From Escherichia coli (GTDB lineage: Bacteria; Pseudomonadota; Gammaproteobacteria; Enterobacterales; Enterobacteriaceae): a stretch of 64,000 nt of DNA. Positions within the stretch are counted from its first letter, which is position 1. Each line of letters begins with the position of its first letter. Position numbers and translations under genes: made by a program. The stretch is from assembly GCF_003334355.1 (NCBI RefSeq), contig NZ_QOWP01000003.1; one strand, given 5' to 3'. Below the pieces are notes generated by a model, which had not been told where the DNA came from, made no database searches, and saw nothing but the letters and a program-made list of their open reading frames with translations. Shown one piece after another: positions 3,878 through 48,096 of the stretch.

Positions 3878-5215
3878 TTAGTTTGGCAGCGTGCGATCTG
3901 GCGTCGTCACCGTACTGGCAGTTTGTGCCGTTGCACCCTGCGGCGCAGATTGCATCGGATGCGCAAGGAAGTAATTGCGCAGGCCTTTGTAAATGGCTTC
4001 TGCCAGCTGTTGTTGGTAATCGTCGCTCGCCAGCAAACGTTCTTCGCTGTTGTTGCTGATAAAACCGGTTTCGACCAGTACTGATGGGATATCCGGCGAG
4101 CGCAGAACGCCAAGGCTGGCGTGTTCTGGTCGACGTTTATGTATTTCGCCAATGCGTTGCAACTGACTGATCATACTGGTCGCTACATCATACCCTACCC
4201 GCTGGGAATGACCGAACTGTAAATCCAGCACCGCCTGGCTTAAATAGGGGTCAGACTGACTGTTCGCCAGCACATCACCCGCCCCACCCAGCAGCTCCGA
4301 CTGTTTCTCGTGCTGCTCCAGCCAGTTGGCCATTTCACTGTTGACGCGACGGTTAGAGAGCACCCATACGGAAGCGCCAGTCGCACTGCGGTTCGGTGCG
4401 GCATCAGCGTGAATCGACACGAGGAAATTGGCGTTTTGCTTACGTGCCACATCACTGCGCCCCATCACCGAGATAAAGTAATCCCCGTCACGGGTTAAAA
4501 CGCCTTTAAACATCGGATCGTCATTGAGCAAAGTACGCAATTTACGCGCGATGGCGATGGTGACATTTTTCTCCCGCGTACCACCGGGGCCGATAGCGCC
4601 AGGGTCCTGACCGCCGTGTCCGGCATCAATAGCGATGATAATTTTATCGCCAGTGTTAGCCGTCGCGCGCGCTGCCGGACGCGTTACCGTATTACTGCTG
4701 ATAACACCCGTAGTGCGGTTACTTTCCGTTTTAAACGGATTGCGCGCCGGTTCGCTGACGCGCGGTGCGACAACCGCAGGCGTTTCAACGCGTTTCGCAA
4801 CCACGGGCGGCGGAGGAGGCGGTGGCGGCACATCGGCGTTAATCGTAAAGACGACAGTGTAATTGCTGCCATTCTGCCGCTTCACCGCTTCGGTTTTACC
4901 GTTTTCGGTAAGATCGACCACCAGCCGTAGCGTTTGTGCATCTTTAGGCGTTCCAGAGCGAATCGCCTTCACCAGATTATTGCCGCTGAACAACAACGGC
5001 AGTCCCTGAATCACGCCCGTTTGTTTGATATCGAGCGCCACGGTGCGTTTGCTTTGATGGCTAAACGCATAATCAGGATCGCCAATAAAACTCAACGTTA
5101 TCCGCGCCTGTTGATTACCGTTAGAAACCTGAATATCAGAGAGCGTCGCGGCACCCACCGGCGTGCACAGCAGCAGCAGCGTCGCTACCAACCAATTTCT
5201 GATGCGATACATCAT
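3878..5215 (-). CDS. amiB: N-acetylmuramoyl-L-alanine amidase AmiB
   Basis: ORF track 450 aa; trimmed to [22 protein letters not shown] (signal peptide) for 445 aa; contains the octaproline tract and amidase_3 region. Confidence 0.93.
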
Positions 5216-8621: not shown

Positions 8622-8697
<76 letters not shown>

Positions 8698-8854
8698 TTA
8701 ATCTTCGTCTTTCGAACCGCTACTGCCTTGGCTGCCTTCACTCACCTTAGTCACATACTTTTGTAAGTTCCCAAGGATTCGTTCAGTTGCCGCCTTGTCG
8801 CAATTCGAAATACTGCGATTGGGTGGTCTGTGCTTTGCAGCACTTTTCAAATTT

Positions 8855-8930
<76 letters not shown>

Positions 8931-17669: not shown

Positions 17670-18647
17670 TTATGCCCGGTCAACGCTAAAGGCGATGACT
17701 TCAGCCAGTGTCTCCGCGCCCAGCGCCAACATCACCAGACGATCAACACCTAATGCCACGCCGGAACAGTCAGGCATACCGACTTTCAAGGCTTCAATCA
17801 GATTCTGGTCAATGGGGTGCTGCGGCAAACCGCGCGCCGCGCGCTTACGGTTATCTTGTTCAAAGCGTTGTTGCTGCTCACGGGCATCCGTCAATTCATG
17901 GAAACCATTCGCCAGCTCAATACCTTTATAATAAACCTCAAAGCGTTCAGCGACCCGATGATCTTCGGTACTGATTTGCGCCAGTGATGCCTGGCTGGCT
18001 GGAAAGTGGTACACAAAGGTCGGTTTTTCTTTGCCAATATTTGGCTCTACGCCAAAGGTAAACAGCAATTGTAGCAGCGTGTCGCGGTCTTCTTCGGTAT
18101 CAGCAACATTGCTCAAATCCAGTTTCGCTGCGACTTCCCGCAGTTGCGTTTTGTCGGCAGAGAGCGGGTCAATTTCCAGATAACGCAAGAAAGCTTGTTG
18201 ATAAGAAAGGCTTTCTGCTGCCGGGCAGTCCAGCACCTGTTGTAAGAGATCGTCCACCTCGTTCATCAACCGGTACATATCATAGTGCGGTCGATACCAC
18301 TCCAGCATAGTGAACTCAGGGTTGTGATAACGCCCCATCTCTTCATTACGGAAGCTGCGGCACAGCTGGAATACCGGCCCACAACCGGCAACCAGCAGGC
18401 GTTTCATATGGTATTCCGGGCTGGTCATTAACCAGAGATTCATCCCCTGCGAATGCCCGGGGCCAACGAAACGTGTCTCAAACGGGACCAAATGAATATC
18501 GGTTACCGTCGCCTGGCTCATACAAGGCGTCTCCACCTCCAGCACTCCACGATCGGCAAAGAAACGACGGATCTCCGCCATAATCGCCGCGCGTTTTAAT
18601 AAGTTAGGAATGGATGCGCTCGGCTGCCAGGATGCCGTTTCGCTCAT
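17670..18647 (-). CDS. epmA: EF-P lysine34 beta-lysyl ligase EpmA (PoxA/GenX), 325 aa
   Basis: ORF track 340 aa; start trimmed to [30 protein letters not shown]; class II aaRS catalytic core motifs. Confidence 0.92.
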
Positions 18648-24101: not shown

Positions 24102-24415
24102 TGAGTGCTGAGTTTCAGACCAATAATCCCCAATACGATTAACGCCAGACTCGCCAGGCGCATCGGGTTAGCGGACTCACCGAGCAGTACAATGCCGGTG
24201 ATAGCCGCGCCGACTGCGCCAATACCCGTCCACACGGCATAAGCCGTCCCTACTGGTAACGATTTCATCGCCCAGGCAAGTAGCGCCATACTGACAATCA
24301 TCGCCGTCACGGTAATAACACTCGGCGTCAAACGACTAAAGCCGTGGGTATATTTCAGGCCAACGGCCCATACCACTTCCAGCAGACCAGCAATAACTAA
24401 GATAATCCAGGACAT
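24098..24415 (-). CDS. gdx: SMR-family guanidinium exporter Gdx (SugE), 105 aa
   Basis: ORF track 24098-24565 trimmed to [26 protein letters not shown]; four-TM SMR protein. Confidence 0.93.
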
Positions 24416-24431
24416 ATCAGGCTCCGGAGAA

Positions 24432-24479
24432 TTGGGGCCGTCCCCGGTGAAAAGACGCGTTTGCAGGTCGTCCTGCAAA
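24432..24479 (-). ncRNA. Guanidine-II riboswitch (mini-ykkC) in the gdx/sugE leader
   Basis: Minus-strand transcript has two GC-rich hairpins with ACGR tetraloops: UUUGCAGG-ACGA-CCUGCAAA (24460-24479) and GGGG-ACGG-CCCC (24434-24445), the second immediately upstream of the GGAG Shine-Dalgarno. Confidence 0.7.
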
Positions 24480-24596
24480 GCTGATGGTTGAACGGATATT
24501 TTGCCAGGTGGCAGGGGAATTTCAACTATTACCTTAGTGACTATCGCAGAAAAAACAAACGGCACGACACAGCTGTCGTACCGTTATTGCTTATTG

Positions 24597-24743
24597 CTAT
24601 TGCTGCGCTTTCGTTGCTGCGCCAGAAATCGCGTTACCGCCATCAGAAATGTCTTCACCAACGCCACGCGTGGTGTTGCAGGCAGTTAATACTGTTGAAA
24701 GCACCAGAACAGAAAAGATCGCTGCAATTGTCTTCTTCACCAT
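24597..24743 (-). CDS. ecnB: Entericidin B lipoprotein, 48 aa (not in ORF track)
   Basis: Own translation of reverse complement: [48 protein letters not shown]; lipobox LTAC. Confidence 0.85.
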
Positions 24744-24853
24744 AACGTCTTCCTTTTAGGTAATGTTATTTATGTTTGCCTATAGCAAATTAATAATAGA
24801 CAACATCGCCAAAAATGACGGAAATCTGATGATTTTTCGGAAGAGAAGAAAAA

Positions 24854-24979
24854 TTAGCTGGCAGCGCGAGAGATGGAGTTGCCGAGATGTTTGATGTCTT
24901 CGCCGAAACCGCGAGCGGTGTTACAGCCCGTGAGCAGCGTGCTGGCAAGCAAAACAAGAACGATAAGGCGTTTCATCAT
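24854..24979 (-). CDS. ecnA: Entericidin A lipoprotein, 41 aa (not in ORF track)
   Basis: Own translation of reverse complement: [41 protein letters not shown]; lipobox LTGC. Confidence 0.85.
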
Positions 24980-25030
24980 CTCTGACCTGAATAAGTGATG
25001 GTGCAGCCTGCAGGCCGCACCACAACCGCA

Positions 25031-25597
25031 TTACTTCACGCGAGAGACGTATTCACCAGAGCGGGTATCCACTTTGATGACTTCGCCGATTTGTACGAAC
25101 AGCGGAACCTTAACCACAGCGCCAGTAGACAGGGTAGCCGGTTTGCCGCCAGTACCTGCGGTATCACCTTTCAGGCCCGGATCGGTATCAACGATTTCCA
25201 GTTCAACGAAGTTCGGCGGAGTAACGGAGATCGGCTGACCATTCCACAGAGTTACGATACACTCTGCCTGATCCAGCAGCCATTTAGCGTTATCGCCAAT
25301 TGCTTTTGCATCAGCAGACAGCTGCTCGAAAGTTTCGTTGTTCATGAAGTGCCAGAACTCACCGTCGTTGTACAGGTAAGTCAGGTTCATATCGACAACA
25401 TCAGCGCCTTCAGCGGAATCAGTAGATTTGAAGGTTTTTTCTACGCGAGTACCGGTCAGCAGACGACGCAGTTTAACGCGAGCAAATGCCTGGCCTTTAC
25501 CCGGTTTTACGAATTCACTCGCTTCAACCGCGTAAGGTTCGCCGTCTAACATGATTTTAAGACCAGCACGAAAATCGTTGCTATAGTACGTTGCCAT
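25031..25597 (-). CDS. efp: Translation elongation factor P
   Basis: ORF track 188 aa [46 protein letters not shown] (Lys34 in KPGKG loop). Confidence 0.97.
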
Positions 25598-25638: not shown

Positions 25639-26667
25639 ATGGCGCATATTGTAACCCTAAATACCCCATCCAGAGAAGATTGGTTAACGCAACTTGCCGA
25701 TGTTGTGACCGATCCTGATGAACTTCTGCGTCTTTTGAATATAGACGCGGACGAAAAACTGTTGGCCGGACGCAGCGCCAAAAAGCTGTTTGCCCTGCGT
25801 GTGCCCCGCTCATTTATCGATCGCATGGAGAAAGGCAATCCGGACGATCCTCTTTTGCGTCAGGTACTTACCTCGCAAGATGAGTTTGTCGTCGCGTCCG
25901 GATTCTCCACCGACCCACTGGAAGAACAGCACAGCGTAGTGCCTGGTTTGTTGCATAAATACCACAACCGGGCGCTTTTGCTGGTCAAAGGCGGCTGCGC
26001 GGTAAATTGCCGCTATTGCTTCCGTCGCCACTTCCCCTATGCCGAAAATCAGGGCAACAAGCGTAACTGGCAGACTGCACTTGAGTATGTTGCTGCGCAT
26101 CCGGAACTGGACGAGATGATTTTCTCTGGCGGCGATCCGCTGATGGCGAAAGATCACGAGCTGGACTGGTTGCTCACACAACTGGAAGCCATCCCGCATA
26201 TCAAACGTCTGCGGATTCACAGCCGTCTGCCGATTGTGATCCCGGCACGCATCACAGATGCGCTGGTTGAACGCTTTTCACATTCTACGCTGCAAATCTT
26301 GCTGGTGAATCACATCAACCATGCCAATGAGATAGATGAAACATTCCGTCAGGCGATGGCTAAGTTGCGCCGGGTAGGCGTTACTTTGCTGAACCAGAGC
26401 GTTCTGTTACGTGATGTGAACGATAACGCACAAACGCTGGCAAACCTGAGTAATGCGTTGTTCGATGCCGGCGTGATGCCGTATTACCTGCATGTGCTCG
26501 ATAAAGTACAGGGCGCGGCGCATTTTATGGTGAGTGATGACGAAGCACGGCAGATTATGCGTGAGTTGCTGACATTGGTGTCGGGATATCTGGTGCCGAA
26601 ACTGGCGCGAGAAATTGGCGGCGAACCCAGCAAAACGCCGCTGGATCTCCAGCTACGCCAGCAGTAA
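25639..26667 (+). CDS. epmB: EF-P lysine 2,3-aminomutase EpmB (YjeK)
   Basis: ORF track 342 aa; radical-SAM CxxxCxxC motif (CAVNCRYCFRRH); divergent from efp with only 41 bp between them. Confidence 0.95.
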   Translation: MAHIVTLNTPSREDWLTQLADVVTDPDELLRLLNIDADEKLLAGRSAKKLFALRVPRSFIDRMEKGNPDDPLLRQVLTSQDEFVVASGFSTDPLEEQHSVVPGLLHKYHNRALLLVKGGCAVNCRYCFRRHFPYAENQGNKRNWQTALEYVAAHPELDEMIFSGGDPLMAKDHELDWLLTQLEAIPHIKRLRIHSRLPIVIPARITDALVERFSHSTLQILLVNHINHANEIDETFRQAMAKLRRVGVTLLNQSVLLRDVNDNAQTLANLSNALFDAGVMPYYLHVLDKVQGAAHFMVSDDEARQIMRELLTLVSGYLVPKLAREIGGEPSKTPLDLQLRQQ

Positions 26668-38669: not shown

Positions 38670-38745
38670 GCCCGGATAGCTCAGTCGGTAGAGCAGGGGA
38701 TTGAAAATCCCCGTGTCCTTGGTTCGATTCCGAGTCCGGGCACCA
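38670..38745 (+). tRNA. pheU: tRNA-Phe (anticodon GAA)
   Basis: GCCCGGATAGCTCAGTCGGTAGAGCAGGGGATTGAAAATCCCCGTGTCCTTGGTTCGATTCCGAGTCCGGGCACCA, 76 nt with cloverleaf and CCA end. Confidence 0.95.
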
Positions 38746-38755
38746 AATTCATATA

Positions 38756-38786
38756 AACGGACCTCCACGGAGGTCCGTTTTTCGTT
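38756..38786 (+). terminator. pheU intrinsic terminator
   Basis: GGACCTCC-ac-GGAGGTCC hairpin followed by GTTTTTCGTTT, 10 nt after the tRNA. Confidence 0.8.
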
Positions 38787-39361
38787 TCAGGACGCCACGA
38801 TTTAAGCGTTCTGCCTCCAAATCAATTCTACCGAACTCAACCAGATTCTCCCCACATCACCAGCAATTTGCGGGCATATCCCAATTCGGGAAAATTTGTT
38901 CCTGAGCTATAGCACTAACTGACGTGAAATGTCGTGCGGCCCCGTGATGCTGTTGAACGTCAAATGACGTCATCAGGAGCGTAACGCATCCATAAAGCAC
39001 AACACCGGTCTGAACGGCGACTGATGAGATTTTCTGAATGAGAACAAAGAGAAATGTATCAGTTCGCTTGCTCATGCAAAGACTAACAATCCATTAAAAT
39101 AGTAAGTGCTCCGGACAATTTTCCATGGATTATTTTCTGAACATTTTTCTTTGGCAAAGATGATGAATTTTGATGGTAAGGAATATTACTTCTGGTTCTC
39201 AGTAAAATCCTTTCGTAATACTATGTAATCAAGAAGTTTATGGCTGGTAAAAATAACGTCTTGCATTCACCAATAATATGTAAATAAACCCATCTATAGA
39301 TGGTAAAAATAGGTTGTGGCAATTATCATTGCATCATTCCCTTTTCGAATGAGTTTCTATT

Positions 39362-40900
39362 ATGCAACAACCTGTAGTTCGCGTTGGCGAATGGCTTGTT
39401 ACTCCGTCCATAAACCAAATTAGCCGCAATGGGCGTCAACTTACCCTTGAGCCGAGATTAATCGATCTTCTGGTTTTCTTTGCTCAACACAGTGGCGAAG
39501 TACTTAGCAGGGATGAACTTATCGATAATGTCTGGAAGAGAAGTATTGTCACCAATCACGTTGTGACGCAGAGTATCTCAGAACTACGTAAGTCATTAAA
39601 AGATAATGATGAAGATAGTCCTGTCTATATCGCTACTGTACCAAAGCGCGGCTATAAATTAATGGTGCCGGTTATCTGGTACAGCGAAGAAGAGGGAGAG
39701 AAAATAATGCTATCTTCGCCTCCCCCTATACCAGAGGCGGTTCCTGCCACAGATTCTCCCTCCCACAGTCTTAACATTCAAAACACCGCAACGCCACCTG
39801 AACAATCCCCAGTTAAAAGCAAACGATTCACTACCTTTTGGGTATGGTTTTTTTTCCTGTTGTCGTTAGGTATCTGTGTAGCACTGGTAGCGTTTTCAAG
39901 TCTTGATACACGTCTTCCTATGAGCAAATCGCGTATTTTGCTCAATCCACGCGATATTGACATTAATATGGTAAATAAAAGTTGTAACAGCTGGAGTTCC
40001 CCGTATCAGCTCTCTTACGCGATAGGCGTGGGTGATTTGGTGGCGACATCACTTAACACCTTCTCCACCTTTATGGTGCATGACAAAATCAACTACAACA
40101 TTGATGAACCGAGCAGTTCCGGTAAAACATTATCTATTGCGTTTGTTAATCAGCGCCAATACCGTGCTCAACAATGCTTTATGTCGATAAAATTGGTAGA
40201 CAATGCAGATGGTTCAACCATGCTGGATAAACGTTATGTCATCACTAACGGTAATCAGCTGGCGATTCAAAATGATTTACTGGAGAGTTTATCAAAAGCG
40301 TTAAACCAACCGTGGCCACAACGAATGCAGGAGACGCTCCAGAAAATTTTGCCGCATCGTGGTGCGTTATTAACTAATTTTTATCAGGCACATGATTATT
40401 TACTGCATGGCGATGATAAATCATTGAACCGTGCCAGTGAATTATTAGGTGAGATTGTTCAATCATCCCCAGAATTTACCTACGCGAGAGCAGAAAAAGC
40501 ATTAGTTGATATCGTGCGCCATTCTCAACATCCTTTAGATGAAAAACAATTAGCAGCACTGAACACAGAAATAGATAACATTGTTACACTGCCGGAATTG
40601 AACAACCTGTCCATTATATATCAAATAAAAGCGGTCAGTGCTCTGGTAAAAGGTAAAACAGATGAGTCTTACCAGGCGATAAATACTGGCATTGATCTTG
40701 AAATGTCCTGGCTAAATTATGTGTTGCTTGGCAAGGTTTATGAAATGAAGGGGATGAACCGGGAAGCAGCTGATGCATATCTCACCGCCTTTAATTTACG
40801 CCCAGGGGCAAACACCCTTTACTGGATTGAAAATGGTATATTCCAGACTTCTGTTCCTTATGTTGTACCTTATCTCGACAAATTTCTTGCTTCAGAATAA
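39362..40900 (+). CDS. cadC: Membrane-integrated pH/lysine-responsive transcriptional activator CadC
   Basis: ORF track 512 aa MQQPVVRVGEWLVTPSINQISRNGRQLTLEPRLIDLLVFF (winged-helix), single TM, PPPIP motif at codons 120-124. Confidence 0.95.
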   Translation: MQQPVVRVGEWLVTPSINQISRNGRQLTLEPRLIDLLVFFAQHSGEVLSRDELIDNVWKRSIVTNHVVTQSISELRKSLKDNDEDSPVYIATVPKRGYKLMVPVIWYSEEEGEKIMLSSPPPIPEAVPATDSPSHSLNIQNTATPPEQSPVKSKRFTTFWVWFFFLLSLGICVALVAFSSLDTRLPMSKSRILLNPRDIDINMVNKSCNSWSSPYQLSYAIGVGDLVATSLNTFSTFMVHDKINYNIDEPSSSGKTLSIAFVNQRQYRAQQCFMSIKLVDNADGSTMLDKRYVITNGNQLAIQNDLLESLSKALNQPWPQRMQETLQKILPHRGALLTNFYQAHDYLLHGDDKSLNRASELLGEIVQSSPEFTYARAEKALVDIVRHSQHPLDEKQLAALNTEIDNIVTLPELNNLSIIYQIKAVSALVKGKTDESYQAINTGIDLEMSWLNYVLLGKVYEMKGMNREAADAYLTAFNLRPGANTLYWIENGIFQTSVPYVVPYLDKFLASE

Positions 40901-41264: not shown

Positions 41265-42599
41265 ATGAGTTCTGCCAAGAAGATCGGGCTATTTGCCTGT
41301 ACCGGTGTTGTTGCCGGTAATATGATGGGGAGCGGTATTGCATTATTACCTGCGAACCTAGCAAGTATCGGTGGTATTGCTATCTGGGGTTGGATTATCT
41401 CTATTATTGGTGCAATGTCGCTGGCGTATGTATATGCCCGACTGGCAACAAAAAACCCGCAACAAGGTGGCCCAATTGCTTATGCCGGAGAAATTTCCCC
41501 TGCATTTGGTTTTCAGACAGGTGTTCTTTATTACCATGCTAACTGGATTGGTAACCTGGCGATTGGTATTACCGCTGTATCTTATCTTTCCACCTTCTTC
41601 CCAGTATTAAATGATCCTGTTCCGGCGGGTATCGCCTGTATTGCTATCGTCTGGGTATTTACCTTTGTAAATATGCTCGGCGGTACTTGGGTAAGCCGTT
41701 TAACCACTATTGGTCTGGTGCTGGTTCTTATTCCTGTGGTGATGACTGCTATTGTTGGCTGGCATTGGTTTGATGCGGCAACTTATGCAGCTAACTGGAA
41801 TACTGCGGATACCACTGATGGTCATGCGATCATTAAAAGTATTCTGCTCTGCCTGTGGGCCTTCGTGGGTGTTGAATCCGCAGCTGTAAGTACTGGTATG
41901 GTTAAAAACCCGAAACGTACCGTTCCGCTGGCAACCATGCTGGGTACTGGTTTAGCAGGTATTGTTTACATCGCTGCGACTCAGGTGCTTTCCGGTATGT
42001 ATCCGTCTTCTGTAATGGCGGCTTCCGGTGCTCCGTTTGCAATCAGTGCTTCAACTATCCTCGGTAACTGGGCTGCGCCGCTGGTTTCTGCATTCACCGC
42101 CTTTGCGTGCCTGACTTCTCTGGGCTCCTGGATGATGTTGGTAGGCCAGGCAGGTGTACGTGCCGCTAACGACGGTAACTTCCCGAAAGTTTATGGTGAA
42201 GTCGACAGCAACGGTATTCCGAAAAAAGGTCTGCTGCTGGCTGCAGTGAAAATGACTGCCCTGATGATCCTTATCACTCTGATGAACTCTGCCGGTGGTA
42301 AAGCATCTGACCTGTTCGGTGAACTGACCGGTATCGCAGTACTGCTGACTATGCTGCCGTATTTCTACTCTTGCGTTGACCTGATTCGTTTTGAAGGCGT
42401 TAACATCCGCAACTTTGTCAGCCTGATCTGCTCTGTACTGGGTTGCGTGTTCTGCTTCATCGCGCTGATGGGCGCAAGCTCCTTCGAGCTGGCAGGTACC
42501 TTCATCGTCAGCCTGATTATCCTGATGTTCTACGCTCGCAAAATGCACGAGCGCCAGAGCCACTCAATGGATAACCACACCGCGTCTAACGCACATTAA
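41265..42599 (+). CDS. cadB: Lysine:cadaverine antiporter CadB
   Basis: ORF track 444 aa MSSAKKIGLFACTGVVAGNMMGSGIALLPANLASIGG... Confidence 0.95.
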   Translation: MSSAKKIGLFACTGVVAGNMMGSGIALLPANLASIGGIAIWGWIISIIGAMSLAYVYARLATKNPQQGGPIAYAGEISPAFGFQTGVLYYHANWIGNLAIGITAVSYLSTFFPVLNDPVPAGIACIAIVWVFTFVNMLGGTWVSRLTTIGLVLVLIPVVMTAIVGWHWFDAATYAANWNTADTTDGHAIIKSILLCLWAFVGVESAAVSTGMVKNPKRTVPLATMLGTGLAGIVYIAATQVLSGMYPSSVMAASGAPFAISASTILGNWAAPLVSAFTAFACLTSLGSWMMLVGQAGVRAANDGNFPKVYGEVDSNGIPKKGLLLAAVKMTALMILITLMNSAGGKASDLFGELTGIAVLLTMLPYFYSCVDLIRFEGVNIRNFVSLICSVLGCVFCFIALMGASSFELAGTFIVSLIILMFYARKMHERQSHSMDNHTASNAH

Positions 42600-42678: not shown

Positions 42679-44826
42679 ATGAACGTTATTGCAATATTGA
42701 ATCACATGGGGGTTTATTTTAAAGAAGAACCCATCCGTGAACTTCATCGCGCGCTTGAACGTCTGAACTTCCAGATTGTTTACCCGAACGACCGTGACGA
42801 CTTATTAAAACTGATCGAAAACAATGCGCGTCTGTGCGGCGTTATTTTTGACTGGGATAAATATAATCTCGAGCTGTGCGAAGAAATTAGCAAAATGAAC
42901 GAGAACCTGCCGTTGTACGCGTTCGCTAATACGTATTCCACTCTCGATGTAAGCCTGAATGACCTGCGTTTACAGATTAGCTTCTTTGAATATGCGCTGG
43001 GTGCTGCTGAAGATATTGCTAATAAGATCAAGCAGACCACTGACGAATATATCAACACTATTCTGCCTCCGCTGACTAAAGCACTGTTTAAATATGTTCG
43101 TGAAGGTAAATATACTTTCTGTACTCCTGGTCACATGGGCGGTACTGCATTCCAGAAAAGCCCGGTAGGTAGCCTGTTCTATGATTTCTTTGGTCCGAAT
43201 ACCATGAAATCTGATATTTCCATTTCAGTATCTGAACTGGGTTCTCTGCTGGATCACAGTGGTCCACACAAAGAAGCAGAACAGTATATCGCTCGCGTCT
43301 TTAACGCAGACCGCAGCTACATGGTGACCAACGGTACTTCCACTGCGAACAAAATTGTTGGTATGTACTCTGCTCCAGCAGGCAGCACCATTCTGATTGA
43401 CCGTAACTGCCACAAATCGCTGACCCACCTGATGATGATGAGCGATGTTACGCCAATCTATTTCCGCCCGACCCGTAACGCTTACGGTATTCTTGGTGGT
43501 ATCCCACAGAGTGAATTCCAGCACGCTACCATTGCTAAGCGCGTGAAAGAAACACCAAACGCAACCTGGCCGGTACATGCTGTAATTACCAACTCTACCT
43601 ATGATGGTCTGCTGTACAACACCGACTTCATCAAGAAAACACTGGATGTGAAATCCATCCACTTTGACTCCGCGTGGGTGCCTTACACCAACTTCTCACC
43701 GATTTACGAAGGTAAATGCGGTATGAGCGGTGGCCGTGTAGAAGGGAAAGTGATTTACGAAACCCAGTCCACTCACAAACTGCTGGCGGCGTTCTCTCAG
43801 GCTTCCATGATCCACGTTAAAGGTGACGTAAACGAAGAAACCTTTAACGAAGCCTACATGATGCACACCACCACTTCTCCGCACTACGGTATCGTGGCGT
43901 CCACTGAAACCGCTGCGGCGATGATGAAAGGCAATGCAGGTAAGCGTCTGATCAACGGTTCCATTGAACGTGCGATCAAATTCCGTAAAGAGATCAAACG
44001 TCTGAGAACGGAATCTGATGGCTGGTTCTTTGATGTATGGCAGCCGGATCATATCGATACGACTGAATGCTGGCCGCTGCGTTCTGACAGCACCTGGCAC
44101 GGCTTCAAAAACATCGATAACGAGCACATGTATCTTGACCCGATCAAAGTCACCCTGCTGACTCCGGGGATGGAAAAAGACGGCACCATGAGCGACTTTG
44201 GTATTCCGGCCAGCATCGTGGCGAAATACCTCGACGAACATGGCATCGTTGTTGAGAAAACCGGTCCGTATAACCTGCTGTTCCTGTTCAGCATCGGTAT
44301 CGATAAGACCAAAGCACTGAGCCTGCTGCGTGCTCTGACTGACTTTAAACGTGCGTTCGACCTGAACCTGCGTGTGAAAAACATGCTGCCGTCTCTGTAT
44401 CGTGAAGATCCTGAATTCTATGAAAACATGCGTATTCAGGAACTGGCTCAGAATATCCACAAACTGATTGTTCACCACAATCTGCCGGATCTGATGTATC
44501 GCGCATTTGAAGTGCTGCCGACGATGGTAATGACTCCGTATGCTGCATTCCAGAAAGAGCTGCACGGTATGACCGAAGAAGTTTACCTCGACGAAATGGT
44601 AGGTCGTATTAACGCCAATATGATCCTTCCGTACCCGCCGGGAGTTCCTCTGGTAATGCCGGGTGAAATGATCACCGAAGAAAGCCGTCCGGTTCTGGAG
44701 TTCCTGCAGATGCTGTGTGAAATCGGCGCTCACTATCCGGGCTTTGAAACCGATATTCACGGTGCATACCGTCAGGCTGATGGCCGCTATACCGTTAAGG
44801 TATTGAAAGAAGAAAGCAAAAAATAA
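42679..44826 (+). CDS. cadA: Inducible lysine decarboxylase CadA, 715 aa
   Basis: ORF track 42640-44826 trimmed to MNVIAILNHMGVYFKEEPIRELHRALERLNF; PLP-lysine motif region STHKLL. Confidence 0.97.
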   Translation: MNVIAILNHMGVYFKEEPIRELHRALERLNFQIVYPNDRDDLLKLIENNARLCGVIFDWDKYNLELCEEISKMNENLPLYAFANTYSTLDVSLNDLRLQISFFEYALGAAEDIANKIKQTTDEYINTILPPLTKALFKYVREGKYTFCTPGHMGGTAFQKSPVGSLFYDFFGPNTMKSDISISVSELGSLLDHSGPHKEAEQYIARVFNADRSYMVTNGTSTANKIVGMYSAPAGSTILIDRNCHKSLTHLMMMSDVTPIYFRPTRNAYGILGGIPQSEFQHATIAKRVKETPNATWPVHAVITNSTYDGLLYNTDFIKKTLDVKSIHFDSAWVPYTNFSPIYEGKCGMSGGRVEGKVIYETQSTHKLLAAFSQASMIHVKGDVNEETFNEAYMMHTTTSPHYGIVASTETAAAMMKGNAGKRLINGSIERAIKFRKEIKRLRTESDGWFFDVWQPDHIDTTECWPLRSDSTWHGFKNIDNEHMYLDPIKVTLLTPGMEKDGTMSDFGIPASIVAKYLDEHGIVVEKTGPYNLLFLFSIGIDKTKALSLLRALTDFKRAFDLNLRVKNMLPSLYREDPEFYENMRIQELAQNIHKLIVHHNLPDLMYRAFEVLPTMVMTPYAAFQKELHGMTEEVYLDEMVGRINANMILPYPPGVPLVMPGEMITEESRPVLEFLQMLCEIGAHYPGFETDIHGAYRQADGRYTVKVLKEESKK

Positions 44827-46578: not shown

Positions 46579-48096
46579 ATGTCTGAACAAGAAACACGGG
46601 GAGCCAATGAGGCTATTGATTTTAACGATGAACTGAGAAATCGCCGCGAAAAACTGGCGGCACTACGTCAGCAAGGTGTGGCGTTTCCCAATGATTTTCG
46701 CCGCGACCATACCTCTGACCAGTTGCACGAAGAGTTTGATGCGAAGGATAACCAGGAACTGGAATCCTTAAACATTGAAGTCTCGGTTGCTGGCCGAATG
46801 ATGACCCGTCGTATCATGGGGAAAGCCTCCTTTGTAACGTTGCAGGATGTCGGTGGCCGTATTCAACTGTACGTTGCAAGAGATAGCCTGCCAGAAGGTG
46901 TTTATAACGATCAGTTTAAAAAATGGGATCTGGGTGACATTATCGGTGCCCGCGGTACGCTGTTTAAGACGCAAACGGGTGAGCTTTCCATTCACTGTAC
47001 TGAGTTGCGCCTGCTGACAAAAGCACTACGTCCTTTACCAGATAAATTCCATGGTCTGCAGGATCAGGAAGTCCGTTATCGTCAACGTTATCTGGACCTC
47101 ATCGCTAACGATAAATCCCGTCAAACGTTTGTTGTCCGTTCAAAAATTCTGGCCGCTATCCGTCAGTTCATGGTCGCGCGCGGCTTTATGGAAGTAGAAA
47201 CCCCGATGATGCAGGTAATTCCAGGTGGGGCATCTGCTCGCCCATTTATTACCCATCATAATGCTCTGGATTTAGATATGTATCTGCGTATCGCGCCGGA
47301 GCTGTATCTGAAACGTCTGGTTGTAGGCGGTTTTGAACGGGTATTCGAAATCAACCGTAACTTCCGTAATGAAGGTATTTCTGTTCGCCATAATCCTGAG
47401 TTCACAATGATGGAACTCTACATGGCGTATGCGGATTACCACGATTTGATTGAACTGACAGAGTCACTGTTCCGCACCCTGGCACAAGAGGTTCTGGGTA
47501 CCACTAAAGTCACTTATGGCGAGCATGTGTTTGATTTCGGCAAACCGTTTGAAAAACTCACCATGCGCGAAGCAATCAAAAAATATCGTCCAGAAACCGA
47601 TATGGCCGACCTGGATAATTTTGATGCTGCTAAAGCATTAGCTGAATCTATCGGAATTACGGTAGAGAAAAGCTGGGGGCTGGGACGTATTGTCACGGAG
47701 ATCTTTGATGAAGTGGCAGAAGCACATCTGATTCAGCCAACCTTTATTACGGAATATCCGGCAGAAGTGTCCCCGCTGGCGCGCCGTAATGATGTTAACC
47801 CGGAAATCACCGACCGTTTTGAATTCTTCATCGGTGGTCGTGAAATCGGTAATGGTTTTAGCGAATTAAACGACGCAGAAGATCAGGCTGAACGTTTCCA
47901 GGAACAGGTTAACGCTAAAGCTGCAGGTGACGACGAAGCCATGTTCTATGACGAAGATTACGTGACTGCGCTGGAATATGGTCTGCCGCCAACCGCTGGT
48001 CTGGGTATTGGCATCGACCGAATGATTATGCTGTTTACAAACAGTCATACTATTCGTGACGTTATTCTCTTCCCGGCGATGCGCCCACAGAAATAA
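46579..48096 (+). CDS. lysU: Lysine--tRNA ligase, inducible form LysU, 505 aa
   Basis: ORF track 46552-48096 trimmed to [33 protein letters not shown]; assigned lysU rather than lysS by genomic context next to cadA/dtpC. Confidence 0.93.

Follow-up and report, generated by a model that had tools for sequence, protein, structure and literature searches.

A canonical CadC triproline stall site in Escherichia coli, and a linkage to efp, epmB, and epmA that looks like a historical accident

Does it matter to the Escherichia coli acid response that cadC, whose product is translated with the help of elongation factor P (EF-P), lies near the genes that encode EF-P and the enzymes that modify it? The question is raised by a 64,000-nucleotide stretch of E. 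coli DNA (the window, meaning this whole stretch), which is collinear with K-12 at 99.4 to 99.9% identity. A sequence-only reading of the window had pointed to a PPPIP motif in CadC, had named efp, epmB, epmA, and lysU as neighbors, and had proposed that CadC copy number, and with it acid-stress induction, is coupled to genes within 25 kb. It is very probable that the motif is the canonical, already characterized E. coli CadC triproline stall site and that its linkage to those genes is a historical accident, not a selected cluster. In what follows, EF-P dependence, copy numbers, and the balance with LysP come from the literature. The sequence, frame, codons, gene identities, domain context, lack of conservation (of both the linkage and the position of the motif), and disruption by islands come from our own analysis.

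The features of the cad region are these:

39362..40900, plus strand: cadC, ToxR-like membrane-integrated pH-sensing activator of cadBA, 512 amino acids (open reading frame; NCBIfam NF007540; Pfam; K-12 annotation)
39719..39733, plus strand: PPPIP triproline ribosome-stall motif in the cytoplasmic linker (translation; codons match PMC8129111; mutant in PMC5936718)
39794..39799, plus strand: P145-P146 (TPPE), a further diproline of the linker, weaker than PPPIP (translation; "two polyproline motifs" in PMC5811046 and PMC5936718)
41265..44826, plus strand: cadB (41265-42599) and cadA (42679-44826), the CadC-activated operon (open reading frames; K-12 annotation)

CadC matched the NCBIfam equivalog NF007540 at 751.6 bits (cut-off, 400), with residues 1 to 509 covered. 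Pfam placed Trans_reg_C at residues 24 to 100 and CadC_C1 at 191 to 324. The linker spans about 101 to 158, followed at about 159 to 180 by a transmembrane helix, whose hydrophobic stretch, FWVWFFFLLSLGICVALVAF at about 159 to 178, was taken straight from the sequence. The winged-helix OmpR/ToxR-type N terminus, the single transmembrane helix, and the periplasmic sensor domain are all present. Furthermore, cadC is directly upstream of cadB-cadA, and the order is identical in about 65 loci of other genera.

Direct translation of 39719-39733 on the plus strand confirmed the motif, with CCT CCC CCT ATA CCA yielding PPPIP. There are (39719-39362)/3 = 119 codons ahead of it, so that it occupies codons 120 to 124, and the triple proline (CCT CCC CCT, 39719-39727, codons 120 to 122) is an in-frame run of at least three consecutive proline codons. 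The codons published for CadC, CCU-P120, CCC-P121, and CCU-P122 (PMC8129111), are the same. A feature on the opposite strand was considered and rejected; it would read WYRGR, and no open reading frame of 80 amino acids or more lies there. Scanning the window with Rfam gave no RNA element within cadC or close to it.

The context of the motif was also inspected. The residue at position -1 is Ser, which has been grouped with weaker-stalling contexts (C, T, L, G, and S; PMC4176338), and this fits tuning rather than a block of translation. The proline codons avoid the fast CCG, and codons other than CCG strengthen pausing (PMC8129111). As the net of these two features, the putative CadC stall is predicted to be moderate and tunable. 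We also asked if rare codons are confined to the motif, an idea that was rejected because the whole gene is low in GC and rich in rare codons. At 0.42, the GC content of cadC is the lowest among 51 genes measured, ATA accounts for 10 of its 34 Ile codons (5.6% across the window), and CCG for 8 of its 28 Pro codons (55% across the window). Recoding nevertheless shows that the Pro codons of cadC matter (PMC8129111).

Control of CadC by EF-P has been described in K-12. The CadC/EF-P work is reportedly that of Ude et al. in 2013 (Science 339:82), with Doerfel et al. in 2013 said to be in the same Science issue. That CadC synthesis, and hence cadBA induction, depends on EF-P, as the sequence-only reading had stated, agrees with published work (PMC5936718, PMC6544042, PMC8129111). 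Two Pro motifs in the unstructured CadC linker stall ribosomes, and only EF-P relieves the stall (PMC5936718). The same study counted 3 to 5 copies of CadC per cell, whereas a PPPIP/AAAIS variant reached 11 to 14 and activated PcadBA aberrantly. Synonymous recoding of CCU-CCC-CCU to three CCG codons deregulates the acid response (PMC8129111), and PMC6544042 describes the PcadBA::lacZ reporter from Ude et al. 2013 as having low activity in Δefp. This biology is already published, and the CadC triproline is a textbook case of copy number tuned by EF-P.

The window and K-12 can be compared directly. Gene, codons 120 to 124, PPPIP, and CCU-CCC-CCU are the same as in the K-12 system (Ude et al. 2013; Krafczyk et al. 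2021, PMC8129111). Over the 2.3 kb that surround cadC, identity to MG1655 is about 100% (one mismatch by bit scores), and the pheU-cadCBA-dtpC-lysU context is the same. The sole difference in the protein is Glu to Lys at about residue 114 (GEEIML in K-12, GEKIML in the window), six residues before PPPIP. By analogy with K-12, whose motif and codons are identical, the motif in the window would be EF-P dependent too. Other EF-P-dependent E. coli proteins of the XPPX/PPP class (such as AmiB, NlpD, LepA, EnvZ, and CpxA) likewise have consecutive Pro codons and are relieved by beta-lysylated EF-P, and for them, as for CadC, upstream residues and codon choice set stall strength (PMC4176338, PMC8129111). 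Unlike most proteins with PP motifs, CadC has a stall with a demonstrated regulatory purpose, its stoichiometry with LysP.

The EF-P genes of the window and lysU are the following:

17670..18647, minus strand: epmA (yjeA/poxA/genX), EF-P-(R)-beta-lysine ligase, a paralogue of the LysRS catalytic core (open reading frame; NF006828, 604 bits)
25031..25597, minus strand: efp, elongation factor P, modification site Lys34 (open reading frame; NCBIfam TIGR00038/NF001810)
25639..26667, plus strand: epmB (yjeK), lysine 2,3-aminomutase-type radical SAM protein, maker of (R)-beta-lysine (open reading frame; TIGR03821, 532.9 bits, cut-off 369)
46579..48096, plus strand: lysU, second lysyl-tRNA synthetase, at the end of the cadCBA-dtpC-lysU block (NF009101, 1203.6 bits; K-12 annotation)

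The identities and coordinates proposed for these four genes held up against open reading frames and NCBIfam equivalogs, with efp and epmA on the minus strand. EF-P has Lys34, the residue that tips the beta3-beta4 loop (KPGKGQ), within FVKPGKGQA (residues 29 to 37). As proposed, epmB is adjacent and divergent to efp (41-bp spacer), and LysU and EpmA are paralogues; EpmA aligns to the LysU catalytic core with 31% identity (E = 1e-44). Neither the hydroxylase gene epmC nor lysP is among the genes annotated for the window. Distances from PPPIP are 6.8 kb to lysU, 13.1 kb to epmB, 14.1 kb to efp, and 21.1 kb to epmA.

The published work and the gene content suggest the following mechanism. At codons 120 to 122, peptidyl-Pro-Pro-tRNA would occupy the P site while Pro-tRNA waits in the A site; peptide bond formation would be slow and the ribosome would pause. 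EpmB produces beta-lysine, EpmA attaches it to give (R)-beta-lysyl-Lys34 on EF-P, and EF-P would bind the stalled ribosome and accelerate peptide bond formation. The motif, the nonpreferred Pro codons, and the poor codon usage of the whole gene would together leave few CadC molecules per cell, a low level that would balance the cosensor LysP, so that cadBA induction is confined to low pH in the presence of lysine. Loss of EF-P, EpmA, or EpmB would make CadC too scarce for cadBA activation, and removal of the prolines would raise CadC and abolish regulation. EF-P dependence acts in trans, and the roughly 13- to 21-kb spacing would reflect only where the mobile-looking cadCBA-dtpC(-lysU) block landed in the Escherichia lineage, immediately after pheU.

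The triproline itself might be a neutral by-product of a Pro-rich, disordered, fast-evolving linker, with EF-P dependence incidental to it and not selected as a control of copy number. Several findings speak for this idea. The linker is the least conserved region of CadC, with zero invariant columns from W106 to V161. PPP at 120 to 122 is narrow in distribution, being restricted to E. coli, E. whittamii, and further Escherichia species (L004 and L005); at that position, E. albertii has SPTSIP, LPSVP, or LPPVP. Any PPP at all occurs in only about 20 of 65 CadC orthologues, at varying positions. The weak-stalling Ser at -1 and the spread of rare codons through all of cadC point the same way. However, replacing PPPIP with AAAIS both raises CadC and misactivates PcadBA, and synonymous CCG recoding deregulates the response too. 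In addition, triprolines have arisen independently in the same linker across genera: PPPP at 121 in Salmonella diarizonae, PPP at 151 in Klebsiella pneumoniae, and others in CadC of Yokenella, Edwardsiella, Serratia rubidaea, and Vibrio sinensis. This recurrence is consistent with selection having favored a brake more than once, at one place or another in the linker. We therefore consider a neutral origin unlikely and favor the regulatory stall site already described for K-12.

The physical linkage is the sole new element. One explanation for it is that proximity is functional, with selection holding together a lysine- and EF-P-centered neighborhood (cadCBA-dtpC-lysU, efp-epmB, and epmA), for instance for a common gene dosage as the region replicates or is amplified, for a common chromatin domain, or for coinheritance; the linkage would thereby tune the output of CadC. 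Three observations speak for it. All five functions fall inside a 30-kb span and use either lysine or an enzyme of the lysyl-adenylate type; ampC-centered amplicons can hold efp, epmA, and epmB together, though rarely cadC (PMC12625342); and PPP at 120 and the location at pheU are both restricted to Escherichia. The sequence-only reading had suggested checking other genera for the linkage.

We examined 75 CadC loci, collected by scanning 100,044 species genomes, by querying their flanks by tblastn with all 55 window proteins. The flanks were 10 kb (about 20 kb in K. pneumoniae), and "unlinked" outside Escherichia refers to flank content plus backbone synteny with the E. coli map. The linkage was not conserved. 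Only Escherichia has cadC beside the aspA-dcuA-cutA-dsbD-dicD-pheU side of the efp region, and aspA-dcuA-cutA-dsbD-dicD was upstream of cadC solely in Escherichia loci (L004, L006, and L013). In the loci outside Escherichia, roughly 60 in number and spread over more than 25 genera, dtpC and lysU were the only window genes besides cadC, cadB, and cadA within 10 kb of cadC, and none of efp, epmA, and epmB was that close in any locus.

The cad genes are instead found at other places. In 18 loci, among them those of Salmonella, Kluyvera, Pluralibacter, and one labeled Citrobacter sp., they are between glyA-hmp and glnB. In 17 loci, such as those of Serratia, Edwardsiella, and Hafnia, they are between dnaE-accA(-ldcC) and tilS. 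The K. pneumoniae site has purK-purE-lpxH-ppiB-cysS-folD plus a fimbrial operon, whereas cad is beside putP in Yersinia ruckeri and beside purD in Vibrio. The glnB-, tilS-, and folD-type backbone sites are 1.69, 0.48, and 0.82 Mb, respectively, from efp in K-12. We also considered lysU as a universal companion of cad (a "lysine cluster"), which was rejected because lysU is absent after dtpC in the Salmonella-type and Serratia-type contexts; it follows dtpC only in Escherichia and in a group of Klebsiella, Raoultella, Buttiauxella, and Pseudescherichia.

Conversely, the efp block is kept without cad. A contig whose EpmB is named as that of Salmonella diarizonae reads mscM-yjeM-epmA-frdABCD-blc-sugE-efp-epmB-yjeJ-yjeI-groLS-yjeH-fxsA-aspA-dcuA-cutA-dsbD and has no cad genes. 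The efp-epmB(-epmA) neighborhood is itself conserved, with efp and epmB adjacent and divergent and epmA 6.4 kb from efp, and this layout also occurs in Yokenella and in contig L079 of the Salmonella type. However, cadC is outside that neighborhood and adjoins it only in Escherichia, across an integration site at pheU:

38670..38745, plus strand: pheU, tRNA-Phe GAA, island-integration site between dicD and cadC (ARAGORN; Rfam; match breaks in island-bearing genomes)
38943..39102, plus strand: frameshifted tyrosine recombinase/integrase remnant in the pheU-cadC gap (K-12 pseudogene annotation mapped; annotated in other strains too)

Even within E. coli, the linkage is often disturbed. Among 5426 complete genomes, the cadC region is present in 5203 and the dicD-pheU-cadC junction is intact in 3685; the junction at pheU is interrupted in at least 1518 (at least 28%). 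Matches break inside the 3' end of pheU in island-carrying genomes, and in two that were inspected, the insert between pheU and cadC is at least 20 kb and is the LEE or another island. The site has been listed as an insertion site, "tRNA-pheU: yjdC - cadC" (PMC7686366). The interval between epmB and cadC holds 11 unrelated protein genes, on both strands, plus the tRNA gene (K-12 annotation mapped). With these genes in between and the junction often interrupted, cadC, efp, epmA, and epmB are neither a contiguous or cotranscribed cluster nor a stable one within the species.

A physical consequence of the linkage has been recorded in a different setting: ampC amplicons selected with amoxicillin often coamplify efp, epmB, or epmA (PMC12625342). 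One of them (25,157 bp, cadB to yjeM) also took in cadC.

Chance alone could place a gene like cadC near efp. In a polyproline census of 55 window genes, 17 had at least one PP and two, cadC and amiB, had PPP or longer. The amiB run is a stronger polyproline than that of cadC:

4805..4828, minus strand: PPPPPPPP in amiB, residues 130 to 137 (census; translation; AmiB equivalog)

According to PMC5811046, about one-third of E. coli proteins have polyproline motifs, in line with 17 of 55. At such a frequency, any window with efp in it should include many proteins that could be EF-P clients. The colocation of cadC and efp is not statistically remarkable.

Functional proximity therefore has to contend with the absence of linkage outside Escherichia, an efp block that does without cad, a junction that islands break, unrelated genes in between, the position of epmC and lysP outside the window, and the frequency of polyproline genes. 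Furthermore, EF-P is plentiful and diffusible, at about 40,000 per cell (PMC11611912). CadC depends in trans on this abundant factor, and the significance that had been given to its coupling to genes within 25 kb did not stand. We regard functional proximity as highly improbable. A lineage-specific connection is formally conceivable, because PPP at 120 to 122 and the pheU location are both Escherichia specific, but we give the least credence of all to the idea that the move of cadCBA-dtpC-lysU to pheU (13 kb from efp/epmB) and the 120-to-122 triproline were connected events, with a shared efp/epmA/epmB dosage domain buffering CadC; if it were true, CadC output would be buffered against regional changes in copy number, such as ampC-type amplifications and fast-growth dosage gradients.

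The linkage is thus probably an accident of chromosome history that concerns Escherichia only. The known mechanism gains nothing from it, and its use is as a negative: a famous EF-P client near efp, epmA, and epmB should not be mistaken for part of a functional cluster. Among Enterobacterales and Vibrio, the cad cassette is found at five or more distinct chromosomal sites, and its triproline brake is lineage specific, though other genera have one elsewhere in the linker.

The sequence-only reading had placed a polyproline stall motif at CadC codons 120-124 and attached significance to its nearness to efp, epmA, and epmB, the genes for EF-P and the two enzymes that modify it. Translation of 39719-39733 gave PPPIP, and the frame [(39719 - 39362)/3 = 119] confirmed the codon numbers. 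The genes and motifs concerned are as follows.

39362-40900, plus strand: cadC ORF, 512 codons
39719-39733, plus strand: PPPIP of CadC
39794-39799: second diproline of CadC, P145-P146
25031-25597, minus strand: efp
25639-26667, plus strand: epmB, divergent from efp with 41 bp between them
17670-18647, minus strand: epmA
46579-48096, plus strand: lysU

The ORF matched the NCBIfam CadC equivalog model at 751.6 bits (cut-off 400). Pfam placed Trans_reg_C at residues 24-100 and CadC_C1 at residues 191-324, and a hydrophobic stretch at residues ~159-178 (FWVWFFFLLSLGICVALVAF) marks a single membrane helix. PPPIP therefore falls in the cytoplasmic linker that joins the DNA-binding domain to the membrane. 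One residue separates this CadC from that of K-12 (GEKIML versus GEEIML), and the feature is the K-12 stall motif itself rather than a relative of it. A feature on the opposite strand of 39719-39733 was dismissed; that strand reads WYRGR and has no ORF of at least 80 aa there.

The identities and coordinates proposed for efp, epmB, epmA, and lysU were all right, with only their strands left unstated. All four scored far over the curated NCBIfam cut-offs, and Lys34 of EF-P is present in FVKPGKGQA. The suggested paralogy of LysU and EpmA also holds, with 31% identity (E = 1e-44) over the catalytic core (LysU residues 187-502). The membership tests with a clear outcome, for CadC, the polyproline stall motif, and the EpmA/EpmB pathway, were all positive.

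Detailed publications already cover the motif, how it works, and what it does physiologically. In the unstructured linker of CadC, two motifs of consecutive prolines stall ribosomes, EF-P alone relieves the stalling, and CadC is thereby kept at 3 to 5 molecules per cell (PMC5936718, a review citing Ude et al. 2013, Science 339:82). Replacing PPPIP with AAAIS raises this to 11 to 14 copies, and PcadBA is misactivated by the upset CadC:LysP balance (PMC5936718). A PcadBA::lacZ reporter has low activity in a Δefp strain (PMC6544042). Silent recoding of the triproline (CCU-P120, CCC-P121, CCU-P122) to three CCG codons increases the number of copies and leaves the acid response deregulated (PMC8129111), and the codons here (CCT CCC CCT) are identical to those. 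When XPPP motifs were ranked in the CadC context, Ser at position -1 was among the weaker contexts (PMC4176338). The residue before the CadC triproline is Ser (SSPPPIP), which therefore fits a brake and not a block. In the published mechanism, the ribosome pauses at the CadC prolines, β-lysyl-EF-P relieves the pause, and the few CadC copies per cell are matched to LysP. cadBA induction is abolished when EF-P is lost and deregulated when the prolines are. This one genome encodes three in-frame linker prolines in a bona fide cadC with nonpreferred codons, EF-P with Lys34, EpmA, and EpmB.

Poor codon choice spans the whole of cadC and is not confined to the motif. Its GC content of 0.42 (GC3, 0.39) is the lowest among the 51 window genes measured. 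ATA accounts for 10 of 34 Ile codons (5.6% across the window), and CCG for 8 of 28 Pro codons (55% across the window). None of the PPPIP codons is a preferred one, and Ile123 (39728-39730), directly after the triproline, is ATA. This ATA might add to the pause; to our knowledge, published tests have addressed the proline codons.

The motif itself varies among orthologues. In an alignment of 17 CadC proteins the linker was the least conserved part, with no invariant column from W106 to V161. PPPIP at 120-124 was found in E. coli, E. whittamii, and unnamed Escherichia species (loci L004 and L005 in the genome scan). E. albertii has SSPTSIP at this position, LPSVP or LPPVP stands there in two other E. 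coli-like proteins, and E. fergusonii has PPALP here and PPP further on. PPP occurs in about 20 of 65 full-length orthologues, mostly within the linker and at varied positions, and is absent from many others. For example, Salmonella diarizonae has PPPP at 121; K. pneumoniae and Yokenella, PPP at 151; Edwardsiella piscicida, PPPP at 152; Serratia rubidaea, PPPP at 141; and Vibrio sinensis, PPP at 129. Judged from these sequences, the linker proline brake seems to have been repeatedly reinvented rather than inherited.

The 2.3 kb around cadC is ~100% identical to K-12 MG1655 and many other strains and is held by 5295 of 5426 complete genomes, and the full-length window is collinear with K-12 at 99.4 to 99.9% identity. 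The order by K-12 annotation is hflX(part)-hfq-miaA-mutL-amiB-tsaE-nnr-queG-[tRNA-Gly]-orn-rsgA-psd-mscM-yjeO-yjeN-yjeM-epmA-frdABCD-ampC-blc-sugE-ecnBA-efp-epmB, then yjeJ-yjeI-groLS-yjeH-fxsA-aspA-dcuA-cutA-dsbD-dicD-pheU-[integrase remnant]-cadC-cadB-cadA-dtpC-lysU, and then ghoTS-yjdJ-yjdI-dcuSR-dcuB-fumB-yjdF-melBA-melR-adiA-adiY(part). The proteins most diverged from K-12 are those of ampC (97.1% identity) and epmB (97.7%). The sugE-efp interval (24415-25031, the ecnAB region) differs in length from the K-12 record by a net 6 bp. Directly upstream of sugE is a known element, a guanidine-II (mini-ykkC) riboswitch aptamer at 24433-24479 on the minus strand (Rfam RF01068, 49.3 bits; gathering score, 32). 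Two tRNA-Gly(GCC) genes lie at 8622-8697 and 8855-8930 on the minus strand, ~157 nt apart, with ~116 nt unrelated to K-12 (region 8698-8857). In K-12 there are three in tandem (glyV, glyX, and glyY); in 1607 of 5426 complete E. coli genomes the two-copy form spans 80% or more of the probe.

As the sequence-only reading had proposed, we asked whether the linkage is conserved in other genera. An alignment of 17 CadC proteins (62 to 84% identity to the query) was scanned against the genomes of 100,044 species, one per species. This gave 75 loci, kept with 10-kb flanks, which were searched with all 55 window proteins by tblastn; marker genes of other contexts were confirmed by NCBIfam. Within 10 kb of cadC, none of the 75 loci had efp, epmB, or a genuine epmA. 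Matches to epmA at 30% were the lysU gene and were set aside. The upstream set of fxsA, aspA, dcuA, cutA, dsbD, dicD, and tRNA-Phe was found only in Escherichia: Escherichia sp. E1V33, E. whittamii, and an E. coli strain with a 91% identical CadC (loci L004, L006, and L013). Other genera share only cadC, cadB, and cadA, usually dtpC, and sometimes lysU.

Elsewhere, cadCBA-dtpC occupies at least five backbone sites (hmp|glnB, accA(-ldcC)|tilS, folD-fimbrial, putP, and purD; loci L035, L036, L052, L022, L034, and L078). It lies between glyA-hmp and glnB at 18 loci, including Salmonella diarizonae, Kluyvera, Pluralibacter, Phytobacter, Superficieibacter, and a genome labelled Citrobacter sp. It lies between dnaE-accA(-ldcC) and tilS at 17 loci, including Serratia, Edwardsiella, Hafnia, Shimwellia, Enterobacillus, Tatumella, and one C. 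freundii. The putP context is that of Yersinia ruckeri (L034), and the purD context that of four Vibrio loci. The Klebsiella, Raoultella, Buttiauxella, and Pseudescherichia group keeps lysU downstream with different upstream DNA. In K. pneumoniae, a view widened to about -20 kb and +21 kb around cad contained no efp, epmA, or epmB; upstream are a fimbrial operon and then folD, ybcJ, cysS, ppiB, lpxH, purE, and purK, and downstream are sugar-catabolism genes. By the coordinates of the K-12 record, efp lies at 4.147 Mb, the junction hmp|glnB at 1.196 Mb (1.69 Mb off around the circle), accA-ldcC-yaeR-tilS at 3.67 Mb (0.48 Mb from efp), and purK…folD-sfm at 3.32 to 3.33 Mb (0.82 Mb from efp). Distances in other genera are inferred from the 10- to 20-kb flanks and backbone synteny.

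The contig with the EpmB database-named for Salmonella diarizonae has mscM-yjeM-epmA-frdABCD-blc-sugE-…-efp-epmB-yjeJ-yjeI-groLS-yjeH-fxsA-aspA-dcuA-cutA-dsbD intact, and this block has no cad gene. Therefore, the efp/epmAB neighbourhood is old backbone and the cad cassette moves. In Serratia, the gene for the paralogous lysine decarboxylase, ldcC, is only ~1.5 kb upstream of cad, a possible hint of where the cassette lay ancestrally. A landing of the cad-lysU block at pheU in the Escherichia lineage would account for its position there. In Y. ruckeri, a tRNA-Lys(CTT) gene (17399-17474 of L034) lies ~2 kb downstream of cadA; its proximity to a lysine decarboxylase operon may be coincidence. 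Two records with nonenterobacterial labels carry enterobacterial cadC DNA (L020/L072: "Chryseobacterium sp. 18061," with the full glyA-hmp-cadCBA-dtpC-glnB, and a 425-bp Myxococcus contig), probably through mislabelling or contamination.

Even within E. coli the junction is often split. cadC starts 617 bp past pheU, with a frameshifted integrase remnant between them (~38943-39102; interval, 38670-39361). A 1.5-kb probe spanning dicD-pheU-cadC matched without a break in only 3685 of 5426 complete genomes, whereas the cadC region was intact in 5203. Therefore, at least 1518 genomes (28%) have cadC but a split junction. In the genomes sampled, the break falls at probe position ~424, inside the pheU 3' end, the signature of integrase-mediated insertion. 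"tRNA-pheU: yjdC - cadC" is a major pathogenicity-island integration site (PMC7686366). In strain 2009C_3612 the LEE type III secretion island occupies 20 kb or more directly upstream of the remnant and cadC, and strain B2.3 has a different island of at least 20 kb upstream of cadC. In these two inspected genomes (loci L082 and L095), the only ones in which island size was measured, cadC is >30 kb from epmB. E. albertii has no dicD or tRNA-Phe within 4.3 kb upstream of cadC; a 612-aa ORF and neighbours there, unrelated to any window gene, look like mobile-element DNA.

The proximity does not exceed chance either. About 100 of roughly 4300 K-12 proteins carry PPP, so ~1.3 would be expected among 55 genes. 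Among the 55 annotated protein genes mapped to the window, 17 encode Pro-Pro and two, cadC and amiB, encode at least three consecutive prolines. PMC5811046 puts the share of E. coli proteins with polyproline motifs at about one third. In any 64-kb stretch containing efp, at least a dozen possible EF-P clients are expected, including, in the majority of cases, one with PPP. The amiB run (PPPPPPPP, residues 130-137, at 4805-4828 on the minus strand of a gene at 3881-5215) is much longer than that of CadC, is ~20 kb from efp, and had no part in the original linkage argument.

The proposed linked cluster thus fails on cross-genus conservation, on contiguity and stability, and on excess over chance. 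The motif and gene identities stand and the mechanism was already known, but the meaning given to the linkage is not supported beyond an Escherichia-specific accident of chromosome history. EF-P dependence would act in trans, independent of map position. We found no paper commenting on cadC-efp proximity, and the present evidence suggests little that would call for comment. One documented consequence of the physical linkage is hitchhiking on ampC amplicons: those selected by amoxicillin often carry efp, epmB, or epmA, and one of 25,157 bp runs from cadB to yjeM and hence includes cadC (PMC12625342).
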